Positions 7,045 to 56,400 of a DNA stretch of 64,000 bases are shown here, one piece after another. The position numbers and the translations under genes were made by a program. The notes under the pieces were generated by a model. It was not told where the DNA came from. It saw nothing but the letters and a program-made list of their open reading frames with translations, and ran no database searches. Positions within the stretch are counted from its first letter, which is position 1, and every line of letters starts with the position of its first letter. Source of the DNA: a virus; IMG/VR virus record IMGVR_UViG_3300017917_005124, positions 1 through 64,000 of that record; one strand, given 5' to 3'.

Positions 7045-7900
7045 ATTCTCAACGGGTGGTCCAGGCGGGACATCAACATATGTGCAACCAGGTACGAATA
7101 TAATAACTGGTGGAACAGCGAATAATCCAATTGTTTCAGTTGTAAGTTCACCTTCTTTTAATAATTTAACTATATCTGGATTGACATCATCTTCTGGTGG
7201 AGCTATTTTTGCTAATCTTTCTGGAACAAGTATTTTTTCAGGAAGCACAAACCTGCAATCAATATTCAATTTGTTTAGTGCAGCAGATACAACGAAGGCA
7301 AATTTATCTGGAGCTACATTTACAGGACAAGTTAATATTCCAACTTTATCAGCAACAACCTTGAGTGCAACAACATCTGTGTTCACAAGTTCATTCAGAT
7401 TCCCAGTTTCGCCTGTTGCTGGTTTTATATTGACTTCTGATGCGAGTGGTAATGCAACTTGGCAACCATCCCCTACATCAGGAAGTGGTACAACTAAGCT
7501 GGATATACAATCTGTATCAACAGCTACAACAACAACAGCGACAGCGGCTTTAGTTGATGTTCCTGGAATGGTTTTGGCAGCAAGAAATCTTGGGTCGTCT
7601 GCAACTACTTATATTATAAATTTTGCTGGAACATTTTCTAATAACAATAACGCAGGTAACTCAACAATTAGAGCGACATTAAATGGAGTTCAAATTCCAG
7701 GCTCTCCAGTTATGACATTTACAAATGCTGGTGCATCAATGGCTACAGCTCAAAGAAATATAGCCTTAGTTTGTGTAGCAACTGGAGTAAAAAATGGAGA
7801 TGTAATAAAAATTCAGATGTCAGCATCAACTGGGACTTTAACAGCACAGGCTGGTAAGTCACTTTCAATAATAGGAACTTTAAATGCAAATATAGTTTAA
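2843..7900 (+). CDS. Large tail fibre/tailspike with two putative pectin-lyase-like beta-helix regions
   Basis: 1685 aa. Two beta-helix cap motifs (DFSSIKDAVDSI...VSVGPGMY and DFTSIADAVNFI...IKVGAGTF), His-rich fibre motifs (DDHQQYL, HASRH, NHTHAH) and the shared SGGTNLYDIF modules. Confidence 0.6.
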   Translation: MAFSYLYNKQVYPADLFTLVNDGLGITPLYIDYDIKTFDIAIWFESALTVPQQSALDSIVANIVYVDKSGYAAFSFITATEENAGSLTANTIESSYTYATYLSGGTIYSGGTNLYDIFLTSSDGNDITRVQPGTNITTGGTDNFPTVSLVASPSVNNITFSGAATGGNVFATQLSGGTIYSGSTNLYDIFSTGTGDTTRIQPGSNITTGGTDNFPIVNLTASPSVNNITFSGAAIGGTVQAGSGSFTSLSGGTLSGGIIYSGGTNLYDIFLGINDDYVKNIVTVGQGGLVDFSSIKDAVDSITAATTSNPYVVSVGPGMYIEDTITMKPGISVVANSLGSVLVIPSVSTNTIVVGADGSSIVNLILTNASGAGGKAVYHNGTGGTGFLIKDCNFNGNETQVHCYGTSATSIVYIDRCSVTGNNTYGFRVDNTGTTTSQIIFTNGTYKDTSLPVTTDFFTVMGTGSTCTITNSTFRVAQSTGSTFLKAEDGANVRIIGSSIRGFENTIQCLSGGGACNLIFDSVGISESTNDIFIENPGTTGYFNGVADFSKISIAEDSPFFITKTDPQIITVASKGEDFTSIADAVNFITNASDNNRFLIKVGAGTFVEPLIDLSTKPYISIVGSSIQTTLIIPDGNHHVISMGSYNEISFLSISGATTGYAGIAALDSGDFSQAHKISMQDCDTGILITSSSQPTYFYGEYIDLNGVYSCGVRVEASNGIEAFANLENYYNLPSVTGVTGTYVSGSGATADILASGNLGAGDGTAFYIEDGANITINSTYVDSWSKGLHIGNIGLASTFTAPSISLYNNATYDLQVEHISASGTISGNLTQTKINNASANVSWSFLDPSDGTYEITNRLYMTFPNSTHTDLSTIIVEGSTMGLIEGGVLTSGTGFTVNVSAGFGYLEQFPYNAVLQRVDWNSTFINLSANTENFIYFNQNETLIASPSNPDTKYNILLGRVVTNSTSIEFISQSPLSARHTSNKYSDLFREALGPIYSSGSITSEGITPFTIDVTSGKFYYSTNVFNPVGGTGLTFNTVYRDGLGSHVISATTIVPSGYYDNGSGTLAATTASAYTKHALYLIGDGAYEKYYLVYGQNEYSSLLEVENAGLPLPPSYFTNALTIIATIITQQGASGITEIFDNRPIVGFRSQGVSTAASTHGELLGLDADDHQQYLLVDGSRAMSGNFNVGLNHIISAGTINNVTIQAHASRHLPNGADPLATGIPVSINSQNTEGNANSFSRSNHTHAHGVHSGGTSHSVVDSIENGFMSSTDKIYFDTISGQFNTKANLSGATFTGTVQATTLSGGTIFSGGTNLYDIFSTGTGDITRVQSGTNITTGGTDNFPTVSLVASPSVNNITFSGAAIGGNVQADAGRFTSLSATTLSGGTILSGGTNLYDIFSTGGPGGTSTYVQPGTNIITGGTANNPIVSVVSSPSFNNLTISGLTSSSGGAIFANLSGTSIFSGSTNLQSIFNLFSAADTTKANLSGATFTGQVNIPTLSATTLSATTSVFTSSFRFPVSPVAGFILTSDASGNATWQPSPTSGSGTTKLDIQSVSTATTTTATAALVDVPGMVLAARNLGSSATTYIINFAGTFSNNNNAGNSTIRATLNGVQIPGSPVMTFTNAGASMATAQRNIALVCVATGVKNGDVIKIQMSASTGTLTAQAGKSLSIIGTLNANIV

Positions 7901-7901
7901 T

Positions 7902-8693
7902 ATGGATATTTATAATTTTAATATAGCACAATATAATGTAGACCAGATTATAAATGAGGTTTACTTACAAATGAATAAAAGATTAGTTGCTACATATGAA
8001 GGTCAATTAATTGATGGGTATTTTACTGGATATGAAAGTTCTGTTGAGTTTGGGTTCTATATAAATTTAACAATTGAAGAACAAAGTTTATTAAATAATA
8101 TTATATTAAATTATGTTTATAACCCGAAATATGAAGACGATAAAAGGTTTAAAATAAATAATTCTTTTGAAGACCCAAGGTCTATTGATTATGATATAAT
8201 GGGTTTTCATAAAAAAAGAACTATAACTTCAGGTGAACTAAGGAAGGTAGAATATTTTAGAAATTATGACCACTTAACAAAAACTTATTCTGACTTAATT
8301 GTTGTAGAGCTTAGGGAATATTTCAGAAATGAAATAGGTATAGCTCAATATAGAAATCAAACATCAAAGTGGATTTTAAATGATGATACAGAGGGATTGG
8401 TTATTAATTACTCTAAGTATTATTCTCCAGAGGAGGGAATTCAGGAAGGTATAGATAGAAGAACGAATATGATTTCTTCTGCTAAAATTTCATTACTTAA
8501 TGAACTTGCTATTATTTATGGAGAACCAGCAAATCAAAATTATGCATTTGACTTGTTAACTAGTGTTAAGGCTGAAATTGAATATTTTATACAGGGATAT
8601 ACTCAACCTCTTAGAGATTCTATAAATTCTTCTACAAAGCCATATTTAAACTCGACAATAAAAAATGCAATTTTACAACAATTAATATTTTAA
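7902..8693 (+). CDS. Hypothetical protein, possibly fibre-associated
   Basis: 263-aa ORF starting 1 nt after the fibre gene. Confidence 0.6.
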   Translation: MDIYNFNIAQYNVDQIINEVYLQMNKRLVATYEGQLIDGYFTGYESSVEFGFYINLTIEEQSLLNNIILNYVYNPKYEDDKRFKINNSFEDPRSIDYDIMGFHKKRTITSGELRKVEYFRNYDHLTKTYSDLIVVELREYFRNEIGIAQYRNQTSKWILNDDTEGLVINYSKYYSPEEGIQEGIDRRTNMISSAKISLLNELAIIYGEPANQNYAFDLLTSVKAEIEYFIQGYTQPLRDSINSSTKPYLNSTIKNAILQQLIF

Positions 8694-8697
8694 TAAT

Positions 8698-9240
8698 ATG
8701 AAAACATTAATTATAACATTAATAATTACTATAGTACTTGGTTTATTTGTATCTAAAACTTTTAGATATGGATTTTTGACGTTATTAGGTTCTTTTTTGG
8801 TATTTACTCCAATTATATTAATAGGAATATTATATAATGTACCATATTCTCTTTATATGCCTTTTAAAGAAAAGGATTGGAAAGTATTTTTTAAGATATG
8901 GTGGAAGACTATAGATGGTACTTATGCTTTCTTAGGAGATTGTATGTATGAAGGGTTTGCTGAGAGATATGATGAACTTGGAAATGTTTGGGGAGAGTGG
9001 CTTGAAGATTCTGTTACTATGAATGAAAAAACAACGTTTGGTGACAAGCAGACTACTATATCAGCCTCAATTGGATATCTTGAATTTAATAAAATGTTTA
9101 TGTTTAAGAGAGGTCATAACTTAAGTAAGGCTTTAAATTGGGCATTTAGACAAAAAAGACATGCAATCGGTTCTTGGGAGAAAAAAATAGCTCTTAAGGA
9201 GCTTGAAGATAAAAATTTGCATGGAAATATAAAAAGATAG
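8698..9240 (+). CDS. Hypothetical membrane protein
   Basis: Two N-terminal hydrophobic segments. Confidence 0.55.
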   Translation: MKTLIITLIITIVLGLFVSKTFRYGFLTLLGSFLVFTPIILIGILYNVPYSLYMPFKEKDWKVFFKIWWKTIDGTYAFLGDCMYEGFAERYDELGNVWGEWLEDSVTMNEKTTFGDKQTTISASIGYLEFNKMFMFKRGHNLSKALNWAFRQKRHAIGSWEKKIALKELEDKNLHGNIKR

Positions 9241-9280
9241 AATAATATTCTTTTAACTCTATTTATAGAAAAATATAATC

Positions 9281-9589
9281 ATGATAATTGGAACTGGAAC
9301 TACTGTTTATGAGCAAATACTTTCTGTAAGTGAGGATAATTATCCAGTTACAGGTGCTACTTTTGATGTGTCATTATATAATAATGGATTTTTTGATTCT
9401 GGCACCACAGTTAATATTGTTTTATCAGACGAATCAAGAGGTGTTTATACTGCTATTTGGTCAGCATCTACTATTGGAAACTATCAATTATATGCTAAAA
9501 ATAACTTAACATCTGTTATATTTATTTCTGATTTAGTAATAGTAAAAACTGATGAAGAGATTAGTACAAATGTTTATATAGGATTATGA
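9281..9589 (+). CDS. Small beta-rich hypothetical protein
   Basis: 102-aa ORF preceded by TATTTATA at 9260-9267. Confidence 0.55.
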   Translation: MIIGTGTTVYEQILSVSEDNYPVTGATFDVSLYNNGFFDSGTTVNIVLSDESRGVYTAIWSASTIGNYQLYAKNNLTSVIFISDLVIVKTDEEISTNVYIGL

Positions 9590-9635
9590 TAATATAATTA
9601 TTTATTATTTTTTTTTAAAAAATACAATTTACCCC

Positions 9636-9643
9636 TATTTATA
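9636..9643 (+). promoter_or_regulatory. Putative late promoter motif TATTTAT(A/T), representative copy
   Basis: Also at 9260, 25441, 27170, 30060, 32196, 35760, 40183, 48324, 57698 and 28910-28917 (minus strand), each 10-20 nt before a start codon. Confidence 0.55.
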
Positions 9644-9656
9644 TAAAATCGGGTAA

Positions 9657-12600
9657 ATGATAGATAAAAAAATGTTTGAATATACTAGGTGTGCAAAGGA
9701 CCCAGTATATTTTCTTAATAATTATGGTTTTGTATTTGATGCTAAAAAGAAAAAGGTAGACAAGATGACTTGTTTCCCTTATCAAGAATCGTGTGTACAA
9801 AAGTTTCATAAGGAACAAAATAATATAATACTTAAGTCAAGACAATGTCTTCCTGAAGATACTTTTGTTGATACTCCAGATGGGCCAAAACCAATTCAAG
9901 ATTTTAAAATTGGAGATTTTGTGTATTCTTATAATCTTGAAACAGGTCAAGTTGAAATGGATACAGTCGCTGACTCTTGGCTTAGTGGGGATAGACAATG
10001 TGTTAAATTAAAACTAAAAGATTCAAGAAATATTGAAGTTGGAGAGAATCATCCATTTTGGATTGTAAACAAACAGGCTTGGATAAAAGCTAAAGACCTT
10101 GATATTAATGATGAAATACTGGATGCTAATATAGGGTTTGGTGATGTGAATGTAAGTGATGAAGAAATAAAAATACTTGCCTATCTAATTACAGATGGGT
10201 GTACTAATAAGCAAGTAAAATTTACTAATAATAATATTGATTATCTATCTGAGTTTGAAGATAGTGTTAATATATGTTTCCCTGATTTAGAGATTAGAAA
10301 AAGTCCTAAATTAAATGGATATGATTATTATCCTCACCAAAAACATGGAGTAAGTACTTTAAATCCAATAATAGAGTGGTGTGAGAACAAGGGTATAGCT
10401 AATAAAAAGACAGAGTTTAAAAATTTACCAGAAGAAGTTTTTTATTGGGACAAAAATTCCGTATCTCTATTGGTTAATAGAATATTTGCTGGAGACGGAT
10501 GGATTTCTATTTTAAAAAAAACTGGAAATAAAAGATTAGAGCTGGGATTGGGCTCCCCATCACTCGTTTTTTTAGAACAAATTAAAATGTTGCTTAAAAA
10601 ATATAATATAAAAGGCAATATTTATGAAGTTAAAAATATGAAACTTCAGCAAAATAAATTTTATAAACTTAGAATAACTCACTCAAAAAGTGTATCTAAA
10701 TTTATAAATGAAATTGGAATTTATAAGAAAATAAATCAAGAACATCTTGATATTATAAATAATAGAGTTCATGATGTAAAAAACACATCTATTGTTAGAA
10801 AAATAGAGAAAACAGAAACCAAAAAGTGTTATGACATATCTGTTACAAAAAACGAAAATTTTTTAATTAATGGTTTGTTGGTTCACAATACTGGTCTCTC
10901 AGTTGTTACTGCTGGATATGTTGCGTGGAGGCTTATGTTTAGATATGATGAGAAAATACTTATCATTGCCAATGATGGAGCAGGAGCTGTTCGTTTTCTC
11001 GATACTGTTAAGCAATTTATTGAATATACACCAGATTGGATGAAACCAGATTCTGTTGAGACAGAAAATCAAAAGAAAATAATGTTTTCAAACAATTCTT
11101 ATGCTGAAGCTAAGGCATCAAGCCCTAATGCTGGTCGTGGAGATTCGCTTACAATGCTCATTCTTGATGAGACCGCCTTCATCAAGGATGCTGAGGCAAT
11201 TTGGATGGGCGCTGGTATGGCGCTTTCAGCTACTGGTGGTAAGTGTATAATGATTTCATGTGTGCCAGAGGGTACGATGGTATTTACTGATAATGGAATC
11301 AAAGAGATAGGTCAATTTGTTGATAAGAAAAAAAATGGTGGTTATGAAATAGATGAATATAGTGTATATGGAAAAGATAGGCTAAGGAAAGGTAATTTGT
11401 TTTTTAATAACGGTGAACATGATACAAAAATAATAACTACTACAAATTCAATATTTGAGGGAACATTTTCACATAAATTATGGGCATGTAAAAATGGGGT
11501 TTATGATTGGTACAAGACGGAGGAATTAGAGGTAGGTGATTATGTATCTGTACAATATGGCATGGAGTCTTGGGGTGGCAATGATTTTGTAATGGATTTT
11601 AAACCAACTATTAGTAATAAGATGTCAAATAAATTTAATCCTGATAGGATTACAAAAGAAATTTCTTATTTAATTGGATTGTATATTAGTGAAGGTTCTG
11701 TTTATAAAAAATATAATGAAAATAAAGAGTTTATAGGAGGCAGTGTTACGATTACATGTGGTGACGATATATCTAAAGCAATTAAAGATATTGGACTCTC
11801 ATACTCATGTCATGATGGATTACATTATTCAATAGGTTCAAAAAATTTAATTGAGTTTTTGGAATATATTGGTTTTGATTTATCTAAGAAGGCTAGAGAA
11901 AAAGAAATTCCAAAGAGGTTGTTTGAAATGTCTAGAGAGAATATAATTTATATGCTCAGGGGAATTTTTGATGGTGACGGATATTCAAGAAAAGATAAGG
12001 GATATATTGGTATTGGAATGAACTCAAAAAAATTAATACAACAACTAAGGATGTTGTTATTAAATTTTGGTATTTTAACTGATTATAGTGAGGTTTGGAC
12101 TAAAAAAACAAAAAAAGTTAACATAGAGACATTAAATTTTAGAATATCTGCAAATGCAGAGTTTTCTAAGATATTTTATGATAATATAGGTTTTAATTTT
12201 GATAGAAAGCAAAAAAATAAATTAATTTTGGAAAATTATAATTTAAAAAGAAATTCTCCAAATGATATAATACCATTCTCATTAAATTTAATTAAGAGAG
12301 TAATTAGTGAAAGTGGTCTTAAAATAAAAAATTTTAAGGATGCAGGCATATTTATTAATTCGATAGTAAATTCGAGATTAGAATATAAAACGCAACATGT
12401 AAGTAGAAAATTGTTTTTAAAAGTATTTGAAATTTGTAAAAATAAAATTTCAAATGAAACTATAGTTGAAGTAGAAAAGTGTTTATCATCAAATTTAATT
12501 TGGAATAAAATAAATAAGATAGAAAAGTCTAAAAAAGAAACTTATGATTTTTCTTTACCAAATAATGATGAAGATTTTTGGGCTCACTCTGTTATATATA

Positions 12601-15023
12601 ATGGTGTGTTAGGCCATCAAACGCCAAATGGTACTGGTAACCTGTACTACAAGACATGGGTTGATGCTGTAAATAATGATAACAAATTTAATGGCACAAT
12701 GGTTCATTGGACAGAGAATCCAAACAGTTCTGTTAATCTTGAATGGAAAATAAGCCCAACTGGAGAAAAAGTGCCTTGGAGCCCATGGTATGAGGACCAG
12801 TGTAAGAGGCTTAATTGGGACTCTGTTAAGATTGCTCAAGAGCTTGACCTGTCATTTGAAGGTTCCAAGAGGCTTGCTGTTGACCCAGAGCTTGTCACCA
12901 AGTATCATGCTAAAGTTATGGCTGATAGTAATGCTGAGGGGTATATGAGATTTGACTACATGGAGAAAGAAAATCCGACAGAGTTTGCAAAGATTGTTAC
13001 CGACATCACAAATATGACAATATTTAAGAGGCCAGAAGAGGGTAGGCAGTACATCATAGGATGTTTACCTCCTGATGAAAAAGTTTTGACAGATAGTGGA
13101 TTGATGAATATTCAAGATGTTACTGTTGATGATAAATTAGTTAGTGAGAATGGTGATTATGTTGATATAATTAATAAGCAAATATACCAAGTTATTGATG
13201 AGGATATATTTGAGATGAAAATGGATAACACTTTTAGAACAACAACATTTACAAAGGAGCATCCAATTTTAATTAGTAAACCAAATTTGAAAAGAAATTA
13301 CAACAAAAATCATAATAAGTATAGATTTAATGAAAGATATTGGGATTTTGATTTTAATTACACAAGAATGGAAGATGTTGAAATTGGTGACTGGATTAAA
13401 GTTCCTAATGTGTATAAAAAGGAAATAAAAAATATTTATAATGATAAATGGAAAATAAGCGAATCTGTTAGGTCTGATTTTGAGTTTGAATCACCATTGT
13501 TAGAAGATGACTTTTGGTGGTTTATTGGAATGTGGCTAGGAGATGGATGGTTAGGAAAAAATAATTATTCACATACAATATCAATATGTTTTGATAAAAA
13601 TCATGAGGGCTACATTGAAAAATGCGAAGATATTATTAAACGATTATTTAAGCGTTCTCCATCTTTTGTTGATAAAGGTAGTACATATGAATTAGTTTTT
13701 AATTCTAAATTTTTGTACTATTTTATATTAGAAAATTTCGGTCAATACTCACATGGAAAAAAAATACCAGAATGGGTTAAATTTATATCAAATGAATATA
13801 AAAAAGAATTGATTAGAGGTTATTTTGATAGTGATGGATGTTGGGTTAAGATAAATAAAAATGGAATTTTAAATTCAAAAGTAAGTTTTGTTAGTATTAA
13901 TCTGGAGTTGCTTGAATCAATACAAGATATTATTTTCTCTCTTGGTATTATTTCATCTCTAAGTAAGTTGCGAGATAAAAAAACGGCAATAACTCTTAAC
14001 AGAGAGTGTAAGCAAAAAGAAACATACAATTTAACATTATCAAATAATGATAGTTTAGAGTTGATAAATTTAATTTATAAACATGATGATATTAAGTTAA
14101 ATAAATTTAGTTTTAATGATTTTAATATTAAGAATAATAGAATTATTAGCTCTTGTCATTTTGATGAAGATAAACAATTTATTTATTTTAGAGTCAAAAA
14201 AATAAGTAAATCTAAATTTACTGGCAATGTTTATAATTTTGAGTGTGACACACACACATTTATGTGTCATCATATAACGACACATAATTGTGACGTTGCT
14301 AGAGGTGATGGACAGGATTACTCGACAATACAAGTTCTTGATGTTGATACGCTTGAGCAAGTTGCGGAATACAGAGAAAAAGTTTCTCCAGACCTTTTTC
14401 CTTTTGTGATTAATTATGTAGCAAGAATGTATAACATGGCCTATGTTGTAATAGAGGCCAATTCATTTGGTCTTGGTGTATGTTTTGATATAAGAGATAA
14501 ATTTAAATACCCAAGAAATAGATTATATTTTTCTAAGAATATAAAAGATATACATGTAAGGCATTATAGTTATAAGGTGAATGAGGGAACTGAAATTCCA
14601 GGATTCCAAACAACAAGAAAAACTAGAGTATTATTAATTAAGGCAATTATAGAACATATGAGAGAGGGTTCATTAATTTTGCATTCTAAGAAGTTGATGG
14701 CCGAATTTCAAACTTTTGTTATGAATGGAGATAAACCAGAACATGAGCCAGGATTTAATGATGACCTTATTCTCGCTCTTGGTCTTGCACTTTATATTAG
14801 AGACACTGAGTTTGAAAATGTAACATCAAGTACAGAAATGTATAAGAGCATGCTTAGTGCTATGATGCTTAATTCTAATTCTAGCTCTGGAAAATTACCA
14901 GACCCAAACAAAAAAATAGATTTACCAAAAGGTGGTGCTGGTTTGTATATTTTCAATGGTACAAATAACATGAATAATATAGAAAATTCAGACCCAGATG
15001 ATTTAAGTTGGCTTATGGGATAA
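9657..15023 (+). CDS. terL: Terminase large subunit (T4 gp17-like) with three cis inteins; about 577 aa after splicing
   Basis: Walker A LKSRQ|TGLS, Walker B LILDETAF, coupling motif IS|TPNG, nuclease IIG|CDVARG and NDDLILA; lies immediately upstream of the portal. Confidence 0.95.
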   Translation: MIDKKMFEYTRCAKDPVYFLNNYGFVFDAKKKKVDKMTCFPYQESCVQKFHKEQNNIILKSRQCLPEDTFVDTPDGPKPIQDFKIGDFVYSYNLETGQVEMDTVADSWLSGDRQCVKLKLKDSRNIEVGENHPFWIVNKQAWIKAKDLDINDEILDANIGFGDVNVSDEEIKILAYLITDGCTNKQVKFTNNNIDYLSEFEDSVNICFPDLEIRKSPKLNGYDYYPHQKHGVSTLNPIIEWCENKGIANKKTEFKNLPEEVFYWDKNSVSLLVNRIFAGDGWISILKKTGNKRLELGLGSPSLVFLEQIKMLLKKYNIKGNIYEVKNMKLQQNKFYKLRITHSKSVSKFINEIGIYKKINQEHLDIINNRVHDVKNTSIVRKIEKTETKKCYDISVTKNENFLINGLLVHNTGLSVVTAGYVAWRLMFRYDEKILIIANDGAGAVRFLDTVKQFIEYTPDWMKPDSVETENQKKIMFSNNSYAEAKASSPNAGRGDSLTMLILDETAFIKDAEAIWMGAGMALSATGGKCIMISCVPEGTMVFTDNGIKEIGQFVDKKKNGGYEIDEYSVYGKDRLRKGNLFFNNGEHDTKIITTTNSIFEGTFSHKLWACKNGVYDWYKTEELEVGDYVSVQYGMESWGGNDFVMDFKPTISNKMSNKFNPDRITKEISYLIGLYISEGSVYKKYNENKEFIGGSVTITCGDDISKAIKDIGLSYSCHDGLHYSIGSKNLIEFLEYIGFDLSKKAREKEIPKRLFEMSRENIIYMLRGIFDGDGYSRKDKGYIGIGMNSKKLIQQLRMLLLNFGILTDYSEVWTKKTKKVNIETLNFRISANAEFSKIFYDNIGFNFDRKQKNKLILENYNLKRNSPNDIIPFSLNLIKRVISESGLKIKNFKDAGIFINSIVNSRLEYKTQHVSRKLFLKVFEICKNKISNETIVEVEKCLSSNLIWNKINKIEKSKKETYDFSLPNNDEDFWAHSVIYNGVLGHQTPNGTGNLYYKTWVDAVNNDNKFNGTMVHWTENPNSSVNLEWKISPTGEKVPWSPWYEDQCKRLNWDSVKIAQELDLSFEGSKRLAVDPELVTKYHAKVMADSNAEGYMRFDYMEKENPTEFAKIVTDITNMTIFKRPEEGRQYIIGCLPPDEKVLTDSGLMNIQDVTVDDKLVSENGDYVDIINKQIYQVIDEDIFEMKMDNTFRTTTFTKEHPILISKPNLKRNYNKNHNKYRFNERYWDFDFNYTRMEDVEIGDWIKVPNVYKKEIKNIYNDKWKISESVRSDFEFESPLLEDDFWWFIGMWLGDGWLGKNNYSHTISICFDKNHEGYIEKCEDIIKRLFKRSPSFVDKGSTYELVFNSKFLYYFILENFGQYSHGKKIPEWVKFISNEYKKELIRGYFDSDGCWVKINKNGILNSKVSFVSINLELLESIQDIIFSLGIISSLSKLRDKKTAITLNRECKQKETYNLTLSNNDSLELINLIYKHDDIKLNKFSFNDFNIKNNRIISSCHFDEDKQFIYFRVKKISKSKFTGNVYNFECDTHTFMCHHITTHNCDVARGDGQDYSTIQVLDVDTLEQVAEYREKVSPDLFPFVINYVARMYNMAYVVIEANSFGLGVCFDIRDKFKYPRNRLYFSKNIKDIHVRHYSYKVNEGTEIPGFQTTRKTRVLLIKAIIEHMREGSLILHSKKLMAEFQTFVMNGDKPEHEPGFNDDLILALGLALYIRDTEFENVTSSTEMYKSMLSAMMLNSNSSSGKLPDPNKKIDLPKGGAGLYIFNGTNNMNNIENSDPDDLSWLMG
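9846..10889 (+). mobile_element. TerL intein 1 (348 aa, LAGLIDADG)
   Basis: CLPEDT...LLVHN|T with LAYLITDG and RIFAGDG motifs; inserted in Walker A. Confidence 0.93.
11259..12620 (+). mobile_element. TerL intein 2 (454 aa, LAGLIDADG, C-terminal Gln)
   Basis: CVPEGT...VLGHQ|T with IGLYISEG and LRGIFDGDG motifs. Confidence 0.92.
13062..14288 (+). mobile_element. TerL intein 3 (409 aa, LAGLIDADG)
   Basis: CLPPDE...ITTHN|C with IGMWLGDG and IRGYFDSDG motifs; next to the first nuclease Asp. Confidence 0.93.
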
Positions 15024-17400: not shown

Positions 17401-17440
17401 AAAAAAGACTTTCATTAAATTTATGAAAGTCTTTTTTTTT
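17401..17440 (+). terminator. Intrinsic terminator
   Basis: AAAAAAGACTTTCAT-loop-ATGAAAGTC followed by a T run. Confidence 0.8.
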
Positions 17441-17545: not shown

Positions 17546-19651
17546 ATGTACATAGTATTTGATACTGAGACAACAGGCAAGGCAAAGAGTTTTAGTGCGC
17601 CTATAACTGATTTTAATAATTGGCCAAGGATGGTTCAAATTGCTTGGAAATTATTTGATAGAAATGGTGTTGAATTAGATTCTCAGAATTTAATAATTAA
17701 ACCTCAAGGATATATAATTCCTGATGAGGCAATAAAGATTCATAGAATCACAAACGAAAGAGCTAAGTCTGAAGGTGTTTTATTAAGAGTTGCTCTTGAG
17801 AAGTTTGGAGAAGCAATTAGAAATAGTAAATACTTAATTGCGCACAATATAACATTTGATGAAAATGTTGTTGGTTGTGAGCTTCTTAGAGAAGGTATGC
17901 ATAATTATATTCAAGATATTATGCATATTGATACAATGACACGTACAACTGAGTTTGTGGGAATTCCAAATAAAATGGGAAGAAGTGGATTTAAATATCC
18001 TTCTATGACTGAGCTTCATCATAAATTATTTGGCAAAGGCTTTGAAGATGCGCATGATGCACTTGCTGACGTTACAGCTCTTGCTAATTGTTTCTTTAAG
18101 TTACAAGAATTGGGTATTTTAGGATTTAAAGAAAATGATGATGACATTAGTTTAAGTTCACTTTCTGAGTTTGCTAAAGATAAAGCTTCTAGTGTTATAT
18201 TAAATAAAAATATACCATTTACAGCTCTTGGTGTACACACATTCCATTCAATACTTGAAGGCGCTGGCTCAGTTGATGAATATATAAAATTAGCTCAATC
18301 ATTAGGTCATACTTCTATGGCAATAACAGATAATTCAACTTTATCTGGAACATTTGAATTTTATAATAAATGTAAATCCAAAGGCATAAAGCCTGTGTTT
18401 GGTATAGAAATGTTATTAAATGATAATATTGGTATTTATTTTGATAATAAATCTTTTGAGGGAGATAATTTTAAAATTAAAATTTTTATAAAAGATGAGA
18501 AGGGTTATTGCAATTTAAATCACTTATTATATCTTGCAAATACAGAAGGATACTATAATAAGGAGGGTAGAATAAAAACTGAATGGCTCCTTAAGTATAA
18601 GGAGGGGCTATTGGTTTCTACATCTGGACTAGATAGTAAACTTGCAAGCATGGTTCTTAGAGGTAAAGAAAATGATGCTGAAAATTATGTTAATATGCTT
18701 AGGGCTGAATTCCAAGATGACCTCATAATAGAGCTAAAGTTCAGTAAATTTGCTAACCAAAAACAATACAATAATTTCTTGCTTAAGATGATGAGAAAGT
18801 ATAATATTATGCCAGTCTTGAGTAATGATACATATTACCCAACAAAAGATGATTCTATTTTGCAAGATGTTGTAACAGCTATTAAGCAGCATAGAACAAT
18901 TTCTTCCTGTTCTCTTAAGGAAAATAGAGAGCTTTGGTATTTTAGTAGCGATGATTTTAAAAATATTAACATAAAATATGGTTTTAATTACCCAGATGAA
19001 TTTATTGAATTATGTATGCAAAATACATTAAAGGTTGCAGATAAGTGTAATTTTAAATTTGATACTGGCTCTGAAAAATATCCTAGATATGAACCTACTG
19101 AAGATATTATAAAATATTTTGGCACCGATATCCCAGAAGAGATTATAAAAAAACTTTCATTTGCAAAGTTGAGGCAAAAAATTAAGAAGTACCAAGAGAA
19201 TGGTATTGTTGAAATGACGGATGAAAAAATTAAAGAGTATGTTGACCGTCTTAATTATGAGATTGAAGTTATTGAATCTAAGAAGATGCTTGACTACTTC
19301 CTTGTAAACTGGGAAATTATAAATTACTACAGAAAGCAAGGATTTTCCATTGGTCCTGCTAGGGGATGTTTTTTGCCTGGGAGTAGGGTTAAGATGGCTG
19401 ATGGCATGTATGCTCCAATAGATACAATTGAGATTGGAGATAGGGTGATTGATGCCTTTGGGGATGAGAGAGAAGTGATTGATACATTGGAATATGATAT
19501 TGATGAAGACATTATTGAGCTTGAGTTTGATGATGGAAGAATCATTGAGTGTACACTTGACCATGAGATTCTTACAGAGAATCGTGGATGGGTTCATGCA
19601 AAGGATTTGACAGAAGAAGATGAAATTGTTGATATAAATAAAGCAAGATGA
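17546..19651 (+). CDS. dnaE: DNA polymerase III alpha fragment 1: DEDDh exonuclease + PHP + split intein N-half 1
   Basis: FDTETTG, AHNITFD and HDALAD exonuclease motifs; PHP HTFHS and AITD; ...IGPARG then CFLPGS...CTLDH intein N-half. Confidence 0.93.
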   Translation: MYIVFDTETTGKAKSFSAPITDFNNWPRMVQIAWKLFDRNGVELDSQNLIIKPQGYIIPDEAIKIHRITNERAKSEGVLLRVALEKFGEAIRNSKYLIAHNITFDENVVGCELLREGMHNYIQDIMHIDTMTRTTEFVGIPNKMGRSGFKYPSMTELHHKLFGKGFEDAHDALADVTALANCFFKLQELGILGFKENDDDISLSSLSEFAKDKASSVILNKNIPFTALGVHTFHSILEGAGSVDEYIKLAQSLGHTSMAITDNSTLSGTFEFYNKCKSKGIKPVFGIEMLLNDNIGIYFDNKSFEGDNFKIKIFIKDEKGYCNLNHLLYLANTEGYYNKEGRIKTEWLLKYKEGLLVSTSGLDSKLASMVLRGKENDAENYVNMLRAEFQDDLIIELKFSKFANQKQYNNFLLKMMRKYNIMPVLSNDTYYPTKDDSILQDVVTAIKQHRTISSCSLKENRELWYFSSDDFKNINIKYGFNYPDEFIELCMQNTLKVADKCNFKFDTGSEKYPRYEPTEDIIKYFGTDIPEEIIKKLSFAKLRQKIKKYQENGIVEMTDEKIKEYVDRLNYEIEVIESKKMLDYFLVNWEIINYYRKQGFSIGPARGCFLPGSRVKMADGMYAPIDTIEIGDRVIDAFGDEREVIDTLEYDIDEDIIELEFDDGRIIECTLDHEILTENRGWVHAKDLTEEDEIVDINKAR
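19367..19648 (+). mobile_element. Split intein 1, N-half (94 aa, acidic)
   Basis: Cys1, block B CTLDH, then a stop; no C-terminal splicing block in frame. Confidence 0.9.
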
Positions 19652-20102
19652 AAGAAAGGGATTATAATCAAATAGATGCACTAAAATATTTGGTGGAAAC
19701 TGGACCTACGCATACAAATGAATGGACTGAAGCTGGTATGTATAATATATTGTCTAAAGTTATATTAGAAAGTGCGAGGAGATATAAAAAACAAGAGCTT
19801 GATAAATTAATCCAAGAAGCATCAAATTATTAAACAGGAAACACAAAACCTCAAGTAGGTCTAATTTTAGAAAATTGAGACTATATTTTATTTTAGATAA
19901 TAAATATTTAATTGAAGTTAAGGGTTATGGTCCGTGGGCAGATATAGCTAATATTAGCAAAAAAAATGAGGCTGCTAAGGTTTGGTGTAAAGAAAATAGT
20001 ATGAGATATAGACTTGTTGAGTTTAAAGATATTGGTAATCATTGGTATAAAAAGGCGAGAAATAAACATAAAGAATTAAATAATGGCGAAATTAAAGAGT
20101 AG
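19648..20102 (+). pseudogene. Decayed PD-(D/E)XK (TnsA-like) free-standing endonuclease
   Basis: Broken into two frames. FILDNKYLIEVKG...KKNEAAKVWCKEN aligns with FVVENKYMIECKP...KKEAAEKFCNTN of the 48342 gene, but the PD motif is missing. Confidence 0.65.
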
Positions 20103-20577
20103 AAAAATTAGAAAATATACAGGAAAAGTTCATGACTTAACTGTTGAAGAAACTCATTCATATAATATTGAGGGTTTAGGGGTTCATAATTCTGCTGCAG
20201 GAAGTTTGCTCTCTTGGTGTCTTGACATCACAAAGATTGACCCAATAAGATTTGACCTTTATTTTGAGCGTTTTCTTAATCCAGAGAGGAACTGCCTCAC
20301 ATCAAACTGTAATGTGATGCTTAAAGATGGCTCTTATAAAAATATTGTAGATGTTGAGGTTGGTGACCCTGTTCAGACTGAGCATGGACTTGGAACACTG
20401 GTTCAAAAGCATGAGAGAGAGCTTAGAGAAGATGAGAGTGTTTATGAGCTTGAAACTGAAGATGGAGCAAAGGTTCAGTTAACAGGTTGTCATATTGTTC
20501 CTGTGTTTAGAGAAGGTAAGAGAATAGAGGTTCGTGTTGATGAAATATTGGAGACCGACCAATTATTTGTATTTTAA
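20083..20577 (+). CDS. dnaE: DnaE fragment 2: IntC1 (36 aa) + 34-aa extein + IntN2 (94 aa)
   Basis: ...GLGVHN|[34 protein letters not shown]|CLTSNC...LTGCH; extein is 20191-20292. Confidence 0.93.
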
Positions 20578-20593
20578 AAAATTTAATTTGATT

Positions 20594-21288
20594 ATGAAAA
20601 AATATTTAGATATTAAGACTATTAAAGTTTCTAATTTAGTTGCTGAGTATATGATAAAGAAGTTTTTTCAAGAAAACTCTCCATCTCTTTTTAAGAAAGA
20701 GTTTGTAAAAATTTTTGAAATAGAAAAATTAATTAATGATTATCTGAGGCAAATTGATGAAGATGAAGTTAATTTATATATTAAAGAGCATAGAAAATTA
20801 GACTATAAATCAAGACCTTGTTTTGCTTTTATTTCTGATAATTTAACAAATCCACTTAGATTATATTTAGACCAACACACAGAAGGCGAAAGTGTTTGTG
20901 TTGATGATTTTTCCTTAGCAAGTGATTATTATACACAAGATTTAGAAACAAATAAGAATATAATGGATGTGAAATAGATAGAAGTGGTGTTTATGATTAT
21001 AAAAACAAAAAACTATATATTCCAGATTTTATTAATAGAAAGTTAAAGATTTTTATTGAGTTTAACGGTGATTATTGGCATTGTAATCCATGTATATTTA
21101 AAAAAGAATATTATAATACAGTTAAAAAAATGACTGCTGAAGAAATTTGGAATAAAGATAAATTTAGAAACGAAAGAATTAAGAAATTGACTGGATGTTG
21201 TTATTTGGTTGTTTGGGAAAATGATTGGAATAAAAACAAAGAAGAGGTTAAACAGATTTTAATAAAATTTTTAAATGAAAAAAAATAA
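20594..21288 (+). pseudogene. Frameshifted Vsr/EDxHD-like free-standing endonuclease
   Basis: ORF 20594-20977 plus a startless -1 frame 20956-21288 reading YIPDFINRKLKIFIEFNGDYWHCNP...VVWENDW. Confidence 0.8.
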
Positions 21289-22882
21289 AATAAAATCAAT
21301 AAAAAAAATTGATTATAAAGGAGTAGTTTACGACCTTTCTTTTAATAAAGATAATTTATTTTTTACTTCAAGTAATACTTTAAGTGAAGGTACTCAACTA
21401 TCTGTTTTAGTGCACAATAGCTCACCAGATATTGATATTGACTTTATGACTGGAACTGATGATATTACAAATAACTTTTTATATGAGAAATATGGAAGAG
21501 AGCGTGTGATGTCTGTTGGAACATTTGGAACATTTTCTGAGAAGAATACTATTAAGGATGTTGTTAGAGCATATCAAGGAAAGGATGCTACTGGATTTGG
21601 TTCAGATGTATTTGCGTTAACTGAGGAGATGCCAGACTTCCTTAAGTACAACGATACACTTGAGCACTGGTTCGAGACATGGCCAGATAATCCAGAATGT
21701 AGTCCTAGAGTTAGAAACTGGATTAAAGACCCTAAGAATAAAGAAATAATAGAAGTTGCACTTAAGCTTCAAGGTAATATAAGAGGTGTGGGTCAACATG
21801 CTGCTGGTATAGTAATTACTCCGAGTGAGTCTTGGAACTATGTTCCTACTAATATAATCGCATCAAACGAAAATATTGTTACAGCATTTCAAGAGGCTGA
21901 TAAATCTGGAAAAGACCTTAGTGCTCTTGGGATTTTAAAATTAGACAGACTTAAATTAGAAACTCTAAATGTAATCAAGGAGGCTATTGAGATTGTAAAG
22001 AAAAATAAGGGTATAGATATATCTGATAAAGTTGACTACGTTGACCTTGAGGATGAAAATTTATTCATTGAGCTTAGACTTGGGCTTAACCATGGTATAT
22101 TTCAGTTTGAGAGTAGTGGTATGAATAACTTAATAAGAGGAATGCAGGTTGAGAAGTTTGAAGAGCTTGTTGCATGTAATGCGCTCTATAGACCAGGTCC
22201 AATGGGAATTGGTGCCCACGAGGAGTTTATCACAAATAAATTTAATCCTGAAAAAATTAAATTGGTCCACCCAGCTCTTGAGCCAATTCTTAGAGAGACA
22301 AATGGAGTACTTGTATTTCAGGAGCAACTAATGTTTATTGCTGATAGAATTGGTGGAATGGGTCTTGGTAAGGGTGATAACCTTAGAAGATACATGGATA
22401 AGGCGAGTAAGATTATTGCTCGACACTCTGCAGGAGAAAAGCTTACTGAAGAAGAGTTAAACAATAGCAACTGGAAAGGGTTTCAACAATATTGGAATAT
22501 GTTCCTTGAGGGAGCTGCTGCTCAAGGGTATGATACTGCGGAGGTCGATAAAATTAAGGATTGGGTAATCCAATATCTTGGATATTCATTCAATAAGTGC
22601 TTAACAGAAAATCATAAAGTAATTTCTGAGGATAGAGGCGAGATTAACATTCTTGATGTGAAGATTGGAGAGAAAGTTCTTGGATATAATCCCGAAACTG
22701 GCGAGGATGAGTTTAATCAAGTTAAGGATATTCATCATAATGGCAGGAAAAAGGTTTACAGGATTAAAACGAAGTCTGGAAAAATATTAGAATGTACTGA
22801 AGACCATAAGATTATGACAGAAAGTGGGATGAAAACTTTAAAGGAGGTTAGAGAAAATAAATTAAAAATCAAAATTGTATGA
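21275..22882 (+). CDS. dnaE: DnaE fragment 3: IntC2 (48 aa) + catalytic palm/fingers (393 aa) + IntN3 (94 aa)
   Basis: VLVHN|SSPDIDIDF, GQHAAGIVI, LKLDRL, GIFQFES, ALYRPGPM, GYSFNK|CLTENH...CTEDH. Confidence 0.95.
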   Translation: MKKNKIKSIKKIDYKGVVYDLSFNKDNLFFTSSNTLSEGTQLSVLVHNSSPDIDIDFMTGTDDITNNFLYEKYGRERVMSVGTFGTFSEKNTIKDVVRAYQGKDATGFGSDVFALTEEMPDFLKYNDTLEHWFETWPDNPECSPRVRNWIKDPKNKEIIEVALKLQGNIRGVGQHAAGIVITPSESWNYVPTNIIASNENIVTAFQEADKSGKDLSALGILKLDRLKLETLNVIKEAIEIVKKNKGIDISDKVDYVDLEDENLFIELRLGLNHGIFQFESSGMNNLIRGMQVEKFEELVACNALYRPGPMGIGAHEEFITNKFNPEKIKLVHPALEPILRETNGVLVFQEQLMFIADRIGGMGLGKGDNLRRYMDKASKIIARHSAGEKLTEEELNNSNWKGFQQYWNMFLEGAAAQGYDTAEVDKIKDWVIQYLGYSFNKCLTENHKVISEDRGEINILDVKIGEKVLGYNPETGEDEFNQVKDIHHNGRKKVYRIKTKSGKILECTEDHKIMTESGMKTLKEVRENKLKIKIV

Positions 22883-23366
22883 TACAAATTGGAGTTATAT
22901 GTATTTCTACTCCTATTATAGATAATGATTATAACTTATCTATAAAATGGAACATTTGAATAAGATACCAGAACATGTGTTTTCTGGAATTAATAAAGAA
23001 GGTTTTTTAAAATATGTTGAGGATGTATTTATAAAAATAGAAAATTTAGATGAAATACATATTCCAGCTGCAATTTCATTTTTGAAGATTAAGTTTTTAA
23101 ATGGAAATATTGATTTTGAATCAGGCGCATTGATGATAAAAAGTCAATGTAAAAAGTAAGTTTTAATAAATCTCATACTACGCAATCCAAAAACTCGTCA
23201 TGCAACACCTAAAAGTGATATGCAGAAAAATAATTTGGAGAGAGATGAAAGAAAGCGTAATTTTGTAAAAGAAAATTTAGAATACGAACTCATTGAAGTA
23301 TGGGAAAATGATATAATTAATAATATTGAAAAAGTAAAAATATGCTTGAACAATTTGAAGAAATAG
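22879..23366 (+). pseudogene. Decayed Vsr-like endonuclease remnant
   Basis: Short ORF from ATG 22879, then ORF 22947-23159, then past its stop in the same frame NPKTR...RDERK...YELIEVWENDI, the C-terminal Vsr-like motifs; the catalytic core is absent. Confidence 0.65.
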
Positions 23367-24430
23367 TTGAATTTGAAGAAATAGGTGAAGTAGAAACTTA
23401 TGACCTTGAAATAGAATCTAAACATCATAATTTTTATGCTAATGGAATTTGTGTGTCTAATAGTCACTCACTTTCCTATTCATATCTTGCAATGCAAACG
23501 CTTTATTTAAAGCACTATTACCCTACAGAATTTTACACAGCTCTTCTAAATCACCCAAAATCTGGAACTAAGGAAAAGCAACAAGCGTGGATTGCGTCTG
23601 CGATTTCATCAGCAATGTCTAAGGGAATTATAATCAAGAGACCATCTAGAAAGTCAGGATGGGAGTGGACAATGACAGGAGACCATGAAATATCAATGGG
23701 GTTCTCTGGAATCAATGGATTGGGTACTATAGCTTATGAGGAAATGCTTCAACTTATAGATGAAATTCCAGTAGAAAATGGTCAACCTAAGAAGACTCTT
23801 GAGACTGTAAATATGAGTACATTTATGAGACTGCCGTTTAGTAAATTCAATAAAGGTGCGTTTACATCTTGTGTTAAGGCTGGTGTCTTTGATGACTGGA
23901 GCGAGTCAAGAGAGCAATTGCTTGCAATTAAGCAGAAAAAGAAAAAGAAAGTAATAGCAAACCAAGGTGTATTATTTGATATGAATGACTCTTCTTTTGA
24001 TATACCTATGCAAAAAGATGATGTTAATTATCCACCTACTTCTGATTTAACAAAGAGGTCTGAATTTATTGATGTATGTAATTTTGACCTTGAAAAAATA
24101 AAATATATTCTTGATATTAAGAGTGATGTAAATAATAGAGCTAAGAGAGAAAAGCCAGTTGATACTATAATTAATTTTGATGAAAATGATTACTATATTT
24201 TTGTTGTTGAGACATTTAGGCTTATGCAAAGTAAATCTGGAAAACAATATTTAACTATGAAAGTTGGCGATGGAATTAGTCATACTACAATTAGAGCATT
24301 TGAGCCAACTGTAAATGACCTCTTACCTATTTTGGTTACAAATGGTATTTATGTTGGTGAGTTTGAAAAAAATGACAAGGGGTATATCAATTTTAAGAGA
24401 GGAACCAGAATAGTAAGAGTTGATAAATAA
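23342..24430 (+). CDS. dnaE: DnaE fragment 4: IntC3 (40 aa, acidic) + C-terminal 322 aa
   Basis: YDLEI...NFYANGICVSN|SHSLSYSYLAMQTLYLKHYYPTEFYTALLN; HhH-like GFSGINGLG; OB-like C-terminus. Confidence 0.93.
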   Translation: MLEQFEEIVEFEEIGEVETYDLEIESKHHNFYANGICVSNSHSLSYSYLAMQTLYLKHYYPTEFYTALLNHPKSGTKEKQQAWIASAISSAMSKGIIIKRPSRKSGWEWTMTGDHEISMGFSGINGLGTIAYEEMLQLIDEIPVENGQPKKTLETVNMSTFMRLPFSKFNKGAFTSCVKAGVFDDWSESREQLLAIKQKKKKKVIANQGVLFDMNDSSFDIPMQKDDVNYPPTSDLTKRSEFIDVCNFDLEKIKYILDIKSDVNNRAKREKPVDTIINFDENDYYIFVVETFRLMQSKSGKQYLTMKVGDGISHTTIRAFEPTVNDLLPILVTNGIYVGEFEKNDKGYINFKRGTRIVRVDK

Positions 24431-53422: not shown

Positions 53423-56400
53423 ATGAAAGTAATTAAGAGAGATGGCTCAGAAGAGGGTGTGAAATTTGATAAAATTTCAGCGAGAATAAAAAAACAAACT
53501 TACGGATTAGATTCTGAATTTATAGATTATCTTGAGGTATCTAAGAAGGTTATTTCTGGTGTATATGATGGTGTTACATCTAAGGAACTTGATAACCTTG
53601 CGGCAGAGACAGCGGCTGCAATGACAAGGATTCACCCAGACTATTCAATACTTGCAGCAAGAATTGCAATATCCTCACTAAAGAAAGAAACAAAGAAAAG
53701 CTTCAAGGAGACTATAGAAGATTTGTATAATCACATTAGCAAAGAAACAAATCAACATGCTCCAATGGTGTCAGAGGAATTATATAATCTAGTTCAAAAT
53801 CATCACAAGAAAATAGAATCAATGATTGTTCATGATAGAGATTTTGATTTTGAGTATTTTGGGTATAAGACTCTTGAAAGGTCTTACTTATTGAAAATAG
53901 ATAATAAGATAGTAGAAACACCACAACACTTGTATTTAAGAGTTGCTCTTGGGATATGGGGAGATAATTTTGAACAAGCTCAAAAGACTTATGAGCTTTT
54001 ATCAACTGGAGAATTTACTCATGCTACACCAACATTGTTCAACTCAGGAACTCAGAAACCACAGTTATCTTCATGTTTTCTTGTTGGAAACAAAGGTGAT
54101 GATATTGATGGGTTATTTGATACATTAAAGGATGTTGCTAAGATTTCTAAGTGGGCTGGAGGAATTGGTCTACATGTTCATGATGTAAGGGCTAGAGGTT
54201 CTTATATTAAGGGCACAGGAGGTAAGTCAGATGGTCTTTTGCCTATGATGAAAACTTATAACGAAGTTGCAAAGTGGATAAATCAATGTTTTGCTCCAGA
54301 AACACTTATTTATACAAATGATGGAGTCAAGAGAATTGAGGACTTAAAAGAAGGAGAGCTTGTTTTAACTAAGGATGGAAAATATTGTGAAGTTGGAGAG
54401 GTTATGAGTTATAATCAAGTTGGAGGTATGCTTGAAATTGAAACAAAATCAACGTTAAAACCCCTTAGACTAACTGATGAGCACCCTTTATTCGCATTTA
54501 AAAATACATACAATAGAATTGGACGCTCAAATGATGAGTACATAAATCAATTAGAAAAAGGAATAATATCTCCTAGCTGGATTGACAGTGGTGAATTAAA
54601 AGTTGGAGATTTTATTGGAAAAGCAATACCTAAAGAAGTTATTGATGTGGAATTTTTTTCTGAGGAAGATGCATTTATTTATGGTTTATTACTTGGAGAT
54701 GGTCATATAAGCGGATATGAAGTAGGTATATCTTTTAATGAAATAACTAATTCTGATAGTTTATTTATTGTAAGAAATTACTTAGTTGATAGAGATATTA
54801 AATTTTGGGAAGCAAAAAGTGAATCTGAATTTTATTTACAAATTAGATTTTCTTTGAGTAATTTACCTTGGTTAAATGAAGATTTGCTATATGATGAACA
54901 AGGAAATAAAAGGTTACATAATTCTTTATCTCACTTACCTCTAAATAAGAGTTTGCAAATAATTAATGGATTAATTAAATCAGATGGGGGTGTGTATAGA
55001 AGAAATGAAATTCATTTTTATAATACCTCAGAAGTTTTGGTAGAAAATTTATCTTATCAAATTTTGAGATTTAAAGTTCCGACCTATGGTTCTTGGGTTG
55101 AGCGAGAAAATAATAGTAAATACATTTTAGAACATGGATGTAAAAAAGAGCTCACATTATCTTGCGACCTTAGAATCCCTGCCTTCAAAGAATTATCTGA
55201 AATACTTAATATAGAACAGGTTGAGCGTAAAAATTGGATTGTTTGGGATGGTATTTTATATACAAGAATAACATCAGTTAAAATGATTGAGGATTATAAT
55301 GGGAGAGTTTATGATTTAAAAATAAAAGAAAATTTTGAAGACCCATCCTATACATTATCTTCCGCATTGGTTCACAATGGAGGAAAGCGAAAAGGTTCTT
55401 TTGCGGTATATCTTGAGCCATGGCACCTGGATGTAGAGGAGTTTATAGATTTGCGAAAAAACCACGGTAAAGAAGAAGTTAGGGCGAGGGATTTGTTTTT
55501 AGCTCTTTGGATTCCTGATTTATTTATGAAAAGAGTTCAAGATGACTTAGAGTGGACATTAATGTGTCCTAATGAGTGTCCAGGCCTTTCTGATGTGTAT
55601 GATATTTATCCAGAATATGATGAGGAAGGTGAAATAACAAATTCTGAAGAAGTAAATTTAGCATTTACTGAATTGTATGAAAAGTATGAGCTAGAGAATA
55701 AAGGTAGAAAAACTATTAAGGCAAGAGAACTTTGGGCCAAGATACTTGATGCTCAGATTGAAACTGGAACCCCATATGTTTTATACAAAGATGCTGCAAA
55801 TAAAAAGAGCAATCAAAAAAATATAGGAACCATCAAGTCTTCGAATTTATGTACAGAAATAATGGAAGTTTCAACTCCAGAAGAACAAGCTGTATGTAAC
55901 TTAGCTTCTATAGCTCTTCCTAAGATGGTTGTTATTCCTCAAGGAAAAGTTAAATCTAAAGACAAATCCTTGAGAGGATATGATTTCCAAAGGCTATATG
56001 AAGTTGCATATCAAACAGCAGTCAATCTTAATAGAGTAATTGATATTAACTGGTATCCAACAGAAGAGACAAGAAGGTCAAATATGAGACACAGACCTAT
56101 TGGGATAGGTGTTCAGGGCTTAGCTGATACATTTGCTATGCTTGGGTTACCTTTTGAATCTGATGCAGCCAAAAAGCTTAATAAGGATATTTTTGAGACA
56201 ATCTACTTTGCAGCTATGACAGCTTCAAATGATATGTCCAAGAAATCATATAGAGCCGAATCAGCTTCTACTGAAGATGTTAGCTTCACAATTGGGGCGT
56301 ACTCAACTTTTGTTGGCTCTCCATTGTCTGAAGGAAAATTCCAATTTGATATGTGGGGAATTGATGAGTCAATGCTTTCTGGTCTTTGGGATTGGTCTAA

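Follow-up and report, generated by a model that had tools for sequence, protein, structure and literature searches.

A gene for 34 DnaE residues flanked by halves of two split inteins in a phage polymerase encoded in four pieces

When a short peptide is preceded in one polypeptide by the C-terminal half of an intein (IntC) and followed by an N-terminal half (IntN), the order of the parts is that of SICLOPPS, the design by which peptides are made cyclic, and thus it may be asked what such a gene does when it is met in nature. Herein we consider a window of 64 kb, i.e. the whole stretch of DNA that was analysed, which belongs to an IMG/VR virus record of 95 kb and carries a gene of 164 codons built as IntC, 34 residues of polymerase and IntN. 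Does this gene close its 34 residues into a ring, or does it hand them over to a DNA polymerase? Our analysis favours the second answer: the gene is the second of four fragments of DnaE, and quite probably acts as a natural adapter for tandem trans-splicing that was produced by two selfish elements.

A polymerase gene in four consecutive pieces

The phage is an uncultured myovirus with a T4-like portal, and its nearest isolates by the portal protein, Microcystis phage Mel-JY01 and Flavobacterium phage immuto, reach only 39-41% identity. In the window, a DnaE-type Pol III alpha subunit is encoded in pieces by four consecutive ORFs of the + strand (17546-24430), and all four frames are intact (Table 1). 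The Pfam profile DNA_pol3_alpha runs through the first three of them unbroken, with profile positions 2-66 in piece 1, 66-99 in piece 2 and 99-259 in piece 3, which indicates that the extein becomes seamless after the intein parts are taken out. In fact the first two junctions, GPARG/SAAGS and NPERN/SSPDIDIDF (the slash marks the intein site), match those of the unbroken relatives L051-L080; these two and the third junction, YSFNK/SHSLSY, are contiguous in intein-free relatives, and the third is contiguous in the relative L002 as well. The four pieces are probably transcribed together, since no intrinsic terminator was found on the + strand between 17546 and 24430, and a single strong one, a terminator-like hairpin of 15 pairs with a T run at 17401-17437, lies just 5' of piece 1. 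A promoter scan performed no better than on shuffled sequences (47 sites against 41 expected), and a Shine-Dalgarno motif was not seen 5' of any start checked.

Table 1. Positions in the window of the four dnaE pieces, their exteins and intein halves, and the remnants in the gaps
Feature	Position	Strand	Content and evidence
dnaE piece 1	17546-19651	+	exonuclease, PHP, palm start, then IntN1
Extein 1, 607 aa	17546-19366	+	ends GPARG; DnaQ-like exonuclease, PHP domain, palm start; Pfam RNase_T, PHP, DNA_pol3_alpha (profile 2-66)
IntN1, 94 aa	19367-19648	+	Cys1, TLDH; net charge -19; sequence boundaries; 54% identity to N part of L017 mini-intein
Gap 1 remnant, 75 aa	19875-20102	+	decayed homing endonuclease; 20-nt overlap with the 5' end of the 164-aa gene
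dnaE piece 2, the 164-aa gene	20083-20577	+	IntC1, 34-aa extein 2, IntN2
IntC1, 36 aa	20083-20190	+	own Met, ends VHN; net charge +3; intein blocks F and G, profile 96-155, E 1.7e-5
Extein 2, 34 aa	20191-20292	+	SAAGS...NPERN; DnaE palm; Pfam DNA_pol3_alpha 66-99, E 7.8e-12; gene residues 37-70
IntN2, 94 aa	20293-20574 (stop to 20577)	+	Cys1, TGCH at residue 64; net charge -10; sequence boundaries
Gap 2 remnant, 52 aa	21130-21288	+	endonuclease remnant; 45% identity over 38 aa, E 1e-9, to C-terminus of L002 endonuclease
dnaE piece 3	21275-22882	+	IntC2, remaining palm, fingers, IntN3
IntC2, 48 aa	21275-21418	+	ends VHN; net charge +4; partner of IntN2
Extra loop of IntC2	21365-21403	+	insertion relative to IntC1 and IntC3
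Extein 3, 393 aa	21419-22597	+	starts SSPDIDIDF; remaining palm and fingers; Pfam DNA_pol3_alpha (profile 99-259), DNA_pol3_finger
IntN3, 94 aa	22598-22879	+	Cys1, TEDH; Pfam, sequence boundaries
dnaE piece 4	23342-24430	+	IntC3, then HhH and C-terminal part
IntC3, 40 aa	23342-23461	+	ends VSN; net charge -10; Pfam, sequence boundaries
Extein 4, 322 aa	23462-24430	+	starts SHSLSY; HhH and DnaE C-terminal part; Pfam HHH_6

The second of the four genes is an ORF from ATG to TAA in which the intein share is about 79% by length. The preliminary description of this DNA had called it mostly intein, with only 34 residues of polymerase, and both its boundaries and the extent of the polymerase stretch agree with ours, the latter through the Pfam match of these residues; they lie directly 5' of the catalytic PDIDIDF motif. 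In the ORF, Pfam also returns Intein_splicing (E 3.8e-9) and Hint (E 1.5e-7). Moreover the layout of an IntC, 33 or 34 residues and an IntN is common to about 20 clusters at 90% identity, ranging down to 40% identity, and is found also in at least seven representatives of 50%-identity clusters, with lengths of 161-171 aa. A chance ORF was rejected on these Pfam matches and on the conservation of the layout across many clusters.

The residues on which splicing depends are conserved together with the layout, as VHN/S, Cys1 and the His of block B show no variation across the 21 sequences of the family alignment. The ratio dN/dS is 0.056 for IntC1 (against the relative L014), 0.06 for IntN2 (against L001) and 0.07 for IntN1, all of which are approximate because dS is near saturation (about 1.0-1.2); by this measure the intein halves are under purifying selection. 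The 34 residues between them are 91-94% identical to the unbroken relatives L051, L052 and L058, which argues that they are constrained as polymerase, and nothing suggests a second role. It might still be supposed that the fractured dnaE is a decaying pseudogene with the 164-aa ORF as a leftover, as the endonuclease genes are degraded in all three gaps. This reading was rejected on the dN/dS of about 0.06 on the intein halves, and the four intact frames and the conservation of the layout in many divergent relatives likewise speak against it; besides, the loss of an endonuclease with its split intein kept is just step III of a published model (PMC2677866), so that a pseudogene seems very improbable here.

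In two members of the family, P0042 and P0046 (125 and 141 aa), IntC1 and the 34-aa extein are followed by a short tail without Cys1 that resembles only the end of IntN2; this tail may be the remnant of a dead intein or a docking domain.

Partners of the intein halves and their distribution

In all six intein halves of the window the catalytic residues are kept, with Cys1 and TxxH in the N halves and an HN or SN end followed by Ser at +1 in the C halves; the IntC halves end in VHN/S (IntC1 and IntC2) and VSN/S (IntC3). For the 164-aa gene the first point to be settled is which halves belong together. In the relative L017 a contiguous mini-intein occupies the same GRG/S site; to the similarity of its N part to IntN1 (Table 1) comes a 54% identity of its C part and extein to IntC1 and extein of the window, and in the alignment with it IntN1 stops where IntC1 begins, at the canonical point of endonuclease insertion. 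Since L017 fuses both as one contiguous intein, IntN1 is the partner of IntC1. In L002-L013 only the IntN2/IntC2 pair is present, and the partner of IntN2 is IntC2. For example in L002 (5186-10860 of a 195-kb contig) dnaE is in two pieces only, with intein 2 alone and sites 1 and 3 uninterrupted, and its extein 2 and IntN2 together are 89% identical to those of the window.

The two halves carried by the 164-aa gene thus come from two inteins, inserted at GPARG/S (intein 1) and NPERN/S (intein 2), 34 codons apart in the palm; the N halves of these inteins are 32% identical and the C halves 44% (over 36 positions). Their occurrence in the best 80 IMG/VR loci shows that they are distributed independently among the relatives, which have neither, only intein 1, only intein 2 or both: 26 loci have neither, 21 only the split intein 1 and 18 only the split intein 2, intein 1 is contiguous in several of them, and exactly IntC1 plus IntN2 occurs in none of these 80. 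On the maximum-likelihood tree of extein 2 and IntN2, moreover, the rows with both inteins and those with intein 2 only interleave, with nine changes of which at least five are forced by supported branches, a result no different from that with shuffled labels. There are sister pairs in which IntN2 is nearly identical, such as P0023/L040, P0006/L004 and P0007/L008. As for the alleles of the window, IntC1 is 86% identical to that of L014, which has only intein 1, and IntN2 is 86% identical to that of L001, which has only intein 2; this suggests that their union in one chain needed no visible co-adaptation. Accordingly there are two ways to regard the pair: either IntC1 and IntN2 are intrinsically non-interfering, or an interference between them is tolerated.

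Charge, docking and the fate of the 34 residues

The preliminary description had pointed out that IntC1 and IntN2 are electrostatically compatible, and in fact our recount gave the same net charges as it had reported (+3 and -10). When the charges are taken locally, over the first 15 residues of IntC and residues 41-94 of IntN, they are +7 and -14 in pair 1, +6 and -8 in pair 2, and -6 and +8 in pair 3. Pairs 1 and 2 have therefore the same polarity, with an acidic N half and a basic C half, and pair 3 is reversed, a contrast that resembles the one between gp41-1 and Npu DnaE (bioRxiv 10.1101/546465). Because pairs 1 and 2 share their polarity, electrostatics cannot separate them, and any discrimination between them must be of a non-electrostatic kind. 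An electrostatic capture of IntC1 (+7) by IntN2 (-8) within one chain is plausible, the effective concentration in cis is high, and the linker of 34 residues is long enough for a closure of the SICLOPPS type.

It is on these features that the idea of a natural SICLOPPS rests, in which IntC1 and IntN2 would associate in the chain and release a head-to-tail cyclic 34-mer; this could arise in substantial amounts on the side, or could serve to regulate, and limit, the assembly of the polymerase. The order of the parts is correct for it, the peptide starts with Ser, and both Cys1 and Asn are present; a cross-reaction is conceivable from sequence, since it has been reported that charge alone does not set the orthogonality of natural split inteins (10.1101/546465). 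SICLOPPS, however, requires the cognate halves of one intein (PMC8114279), and here the halves come from different inteins and have each a known separate partner; phylogenetically distant split inteins, for their part, are orthogonal by default, as seen for 15 out of 16 in a 24 x 24 test (PMC7090010). Moreover, the same alleles occur singly in relatives, and intein 1 has been gained or lost at least five times with IntN2 unchanged, which leaves no indication that the halves were co-adapted or that a cyclic product was selected. The 34-mer itself is held close to the sequence of the unbroken DnaE, and cyclisation would destroy an essential fragment.

Structure prediction points to the same direction. 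In the AlphaFold2 model of the 164-aa ORF, made with its family alignment, IntN2 folds (pLDDT 70-85), and IntC1 and the extein stay at pLDDT 30-47; compared with PDB inteins, the model attains only a partial HINT fold, with a best E of 0.02 and a TM of about 0.5 (target-normalised) over 87-98 aligned columns. As a fold control we used a segment of L017 which holds the contiguous intein 1, 41 aa and a downstream non-cognate IntN. In the control model the intein reaches pLDDT 75-94 as far as the first IntC strands, the last strand being of low confidence, and forms a complete HINT fold, matching the gp41-1 structure 6qaz with E 3.8e-7 and TM 0.75 (target-normalised) over 119 columns. The alignments were shallow (21 and 23 rows), and the comparison of the two folds is imperfect, as the control has the topology N then C and the ORF is permuted. 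The predicted absence of docking between IntC1 and IntN2 in cis is hence supportive, not decisive.

Taken with the distribution of the inteins, a natural SICLOPPS appears quite improbable, and we found no supporting evidence for a cyclic 34-mer as a product or as a control step. It is similarly quite unlikely that IntC1 and IntN2 interact in one chain at all, whether by the self-splicing of a fraction to the cyclic 34-mer or as a non-productive intramolecular clamp. If it were true, the self-splicing version would be the first natural SICLOPPS, and in the other version the clamp, until displaced by IntN1 and IntC2, would hold the adapter in a soluble or silent state and would put the three ligations in order. 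To the SICLOPPS-like layout proposed in the preliminary description there is thus a part that stands, namely the order of the parts, and a part that is not supported, as the halves are not cognate, having different partners, sites and distributions, and stay undocked in the model. On the whole its observation is confirmed and its interpretation partly supported.

The same description had drawn attention to an extra loop in IntC2 that might set specificity. The loop exists: relative to IntC1 and IntC3, IntC2 contains the insertion TSSNTLSEGTQLS (Table 1). It is found as well in the IntC2 homologues of genomes free of intein 1, where it is usually longer and of variable sequence, so that IntC2 ranges over 48-60 aa against 48 here. 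A discriminator evolved against intein 1 would not be expected in genomes that have intein 2 only, and this role was therefore rejected; the loop is a tolerant, variable segment of the intein-2 family, which may contribute to specificity incidentally.

With the partners assigned as above, the trans-splicing adapter can be described as follows. Two different class-1 split inteins would have left the three genes on either side of their sites, after each had been broken by a free-standing gene for a homing endonuclease, now decayed. After translation, IntN1 on fragment 1 would capture IntC1, and IntC2 on fragment 3 would capture IntN2, and two independent trans-splicing reactions would follow, each with a thioester at Cys1, an attack by the Ser at +1 and the cyclisation of the terminal Asn. 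Ser37 of the 164-aa protein would receive extein 1 in the one, and in the other IntN2, captured by IntC2, would donate the 34-mer to Ser+1 of extein 3; pair 3, with its opposite polarity, would add extein 4, giving a DnaE of 607 + 34 + 393 + 322 = 1356 aa. A pairing of IntN1 with IntC2 would instead skip the 34 residues, as had been remarked before. The IntC-peptide-IntN order would be simply a by-product of two selfish elements inserted near each other, and we propose that self-cyclisation is avoided because the halves are intrinsically non-cognate, with no special adaptation. We infer that the fragments are actually spliced and that pairs 1 and 2 are orthogonal.

Another possibility to be weighed is that one or more of the intein pairs serve only as docking domains, and that the polymerase is assembled non-covalently. 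Such an assembly is known for a fragmented phage ribonucleotide reductase (PMC3045599); it would suit P0042 and P0046, with a Cys-less short tail in place of IntN2, and IntC3, which ends in SN and not in HN. The nucleophiles and the residues of blocks B and G are nevertheless all kept in the window, and VHN/S, Cys1 and the block B His do not vary in the family; furthermore, a palm piece of 34 residues that is only docked beside the catalytic aspartates seems unlikely to give an active polymerase. We regard a non-covalent assembly as quite improbable.

Fractured genes, gap endonucleases and engineered counterparts

Split-intein fractured genes, dnaE included, have been known since 2009, when a gene-breaking model was put forward for this class (PMC2677866), and the 164-aa gene most likely belongs to it. 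As in the published class, a phage gene for a DNA-replication enzyme is broken inside an intein: the interruption falls exactly at the intein and the extein is continuous, IntN is in frame after the N-extein and has Cys1 and TxxH, IntC starts at a Met of its own and ends in Asn before a nucleophile at +1, and all parts lie on one strand. The class also has an endonuclease, Vsr-like or of PD-(D/E)xK type, which occupies the gap and runs into the start of IntC; in the window only remnants stand in this place. The 164-aa gene differs from that class in three respects. The published genes are broken in two, whereas here three split inteins yield four genes; one of these genes is a micro-extein of 34 aa flanked on both sides; and the endonucleases are decayed, which corresponds to step III of the model. 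The same study described an extra in-frame IntC in a truncated DnaE-1 locus (PMC2677866), and this locus probably shows, cut short, the double arrangement found here too. In the papers searched, neither a natural gene of the form IntC, micro-extein and IntN nor a gene joined by three split inteins was described. Altogether the arrangement is a multiple instance of a known arrangement and not a new mechanism.

The gaps of the window and of its relatives appear to represent all the stages of the model: step I in the contiguous mini-intein, step II in the invasion by an endonuclease and step III in its loss. Intact gap endonucleases are found in the relatives L002 and L039, and gaps 1 and 2 of the window hold remnants only. 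In L002 an intact Vsr-like endonuclease of 373 aa lies between the halves of intein 2 and overlaps the start of IntC2 by 4 nt, and to its C-terminus the remnant in gap 2 is related (Table 1); another ORF of gap 2, 20597-20977, has no similarity to the L002 endonuclease. The ORF in gap 1 gives weak matches, one in Pfam to a TnsA-like N-terminal endonuclease domain (E 0.0056) and one, with 32% identity over 53 aa (E 0.004), to the gene of PD-(D/E)xK type and 336 aa which L039 has ahead of its IntC1.

Among engineered systems, SICLOPPS shares with the 164-aa gene the IntC-peptide-IntN order in one polypeptide and the nucleophile at position 1 of the peptide, which here runs from S37 to N70; it differs in that its halves come from one intein, whereas the halves here are non-cognate and cyclisation is not predicted. 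The closer analogue is the middle fragment of tandem protein trans-splicing, where a central peptide is supplied as IntC-A, peptide X and IntN-B (bioRxiv 10.1101/2020.01.31.925495) and for which orthogonal sets have been described (PMC7090010). In both cases a short central peptide has an IntC before it and an IntN after it that belong to different split inteins, and is inserted between an N fragment that ends in IntN-A and a C fragment that starts with IntC-B; in the window these partner fragments are encoded at 17546-19651 and 21275-22882. The phage version is distinguished by being natural and genetically encoded in a series of three inteins, by an orthogonality that is putative, and by both inteins being split at the canonical endonuclease site. 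A likeness exists also with the cyanobacterial DnaE of Ssp and Npu, where the replicative Pol III alpha is assembled through a class-1 intein that is split in nature and whose IntN is acidic and IntC basic; there, however, the insertion site is another one, and a single split gives two genes at distant loci of a cellular genome.

The value of the locus lies mainly in its use as a natural source and a test case of orthogonal split inteins. To ligate many fragments, or to place peptides within proteins, engineers have to rely on sets of split inteins free of cross-reaction, and here three pairs must work at once on one essential enzyme; in particular the non-cognate halves of the same polarity, tethered 34 residues apart, make up the most demanding test of orthogonality. 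Moreover the family is large: its divergent alleles are many, relatives with a single intein or with none exist, and it thus offers ready material on the specificity of split inteins beyond electrostatics.

Several further observations were made in the relatives and in the rest of the window. An ORF of L039 is another middle piece flanked on both sides, with IntC1, 41 aa and an IntN. A further intein site falls within the catalytic motif of DnaE, PDID/xDF, and is occupied at L017:5351-7672, at L039:6995-7690 and 8780-10828, in L016 and in P0022. The N part of this intein has about 146-152 aa, including a strand like that of block F, and its C part, in the next gene, has about 24-30 aa; by this long N part and short C part the natural split appears to fall between blocks F and G. 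In L039 the C part reads MNLLKAVKMDLSIYNTSFTLCSHN/CDF, and a Vsr-like endonuclease gene (7741-8823) lies between the halves. In L017 a short dnaE piece stands between two paralogous genes of about 540 aa, 7669-9303 (-) and 9998-11620 (+), each of which has a Vsr-like ECHG.YWH motif; one of them is encoded on the strand that does not carry dnaE, an unusual situation in fractured-gene loci. The phage of the window is itself unusually rich in inteins: its large terminase ORF (9657-15023, 1788 aa) contains at least one contiguous intein (Intein_splicing match at 9894-10889, E 3.5e-19) with further ones suggested by the sequence, and a weak intein match is seen at 55247-55336 within an ORF of 1234 aa.
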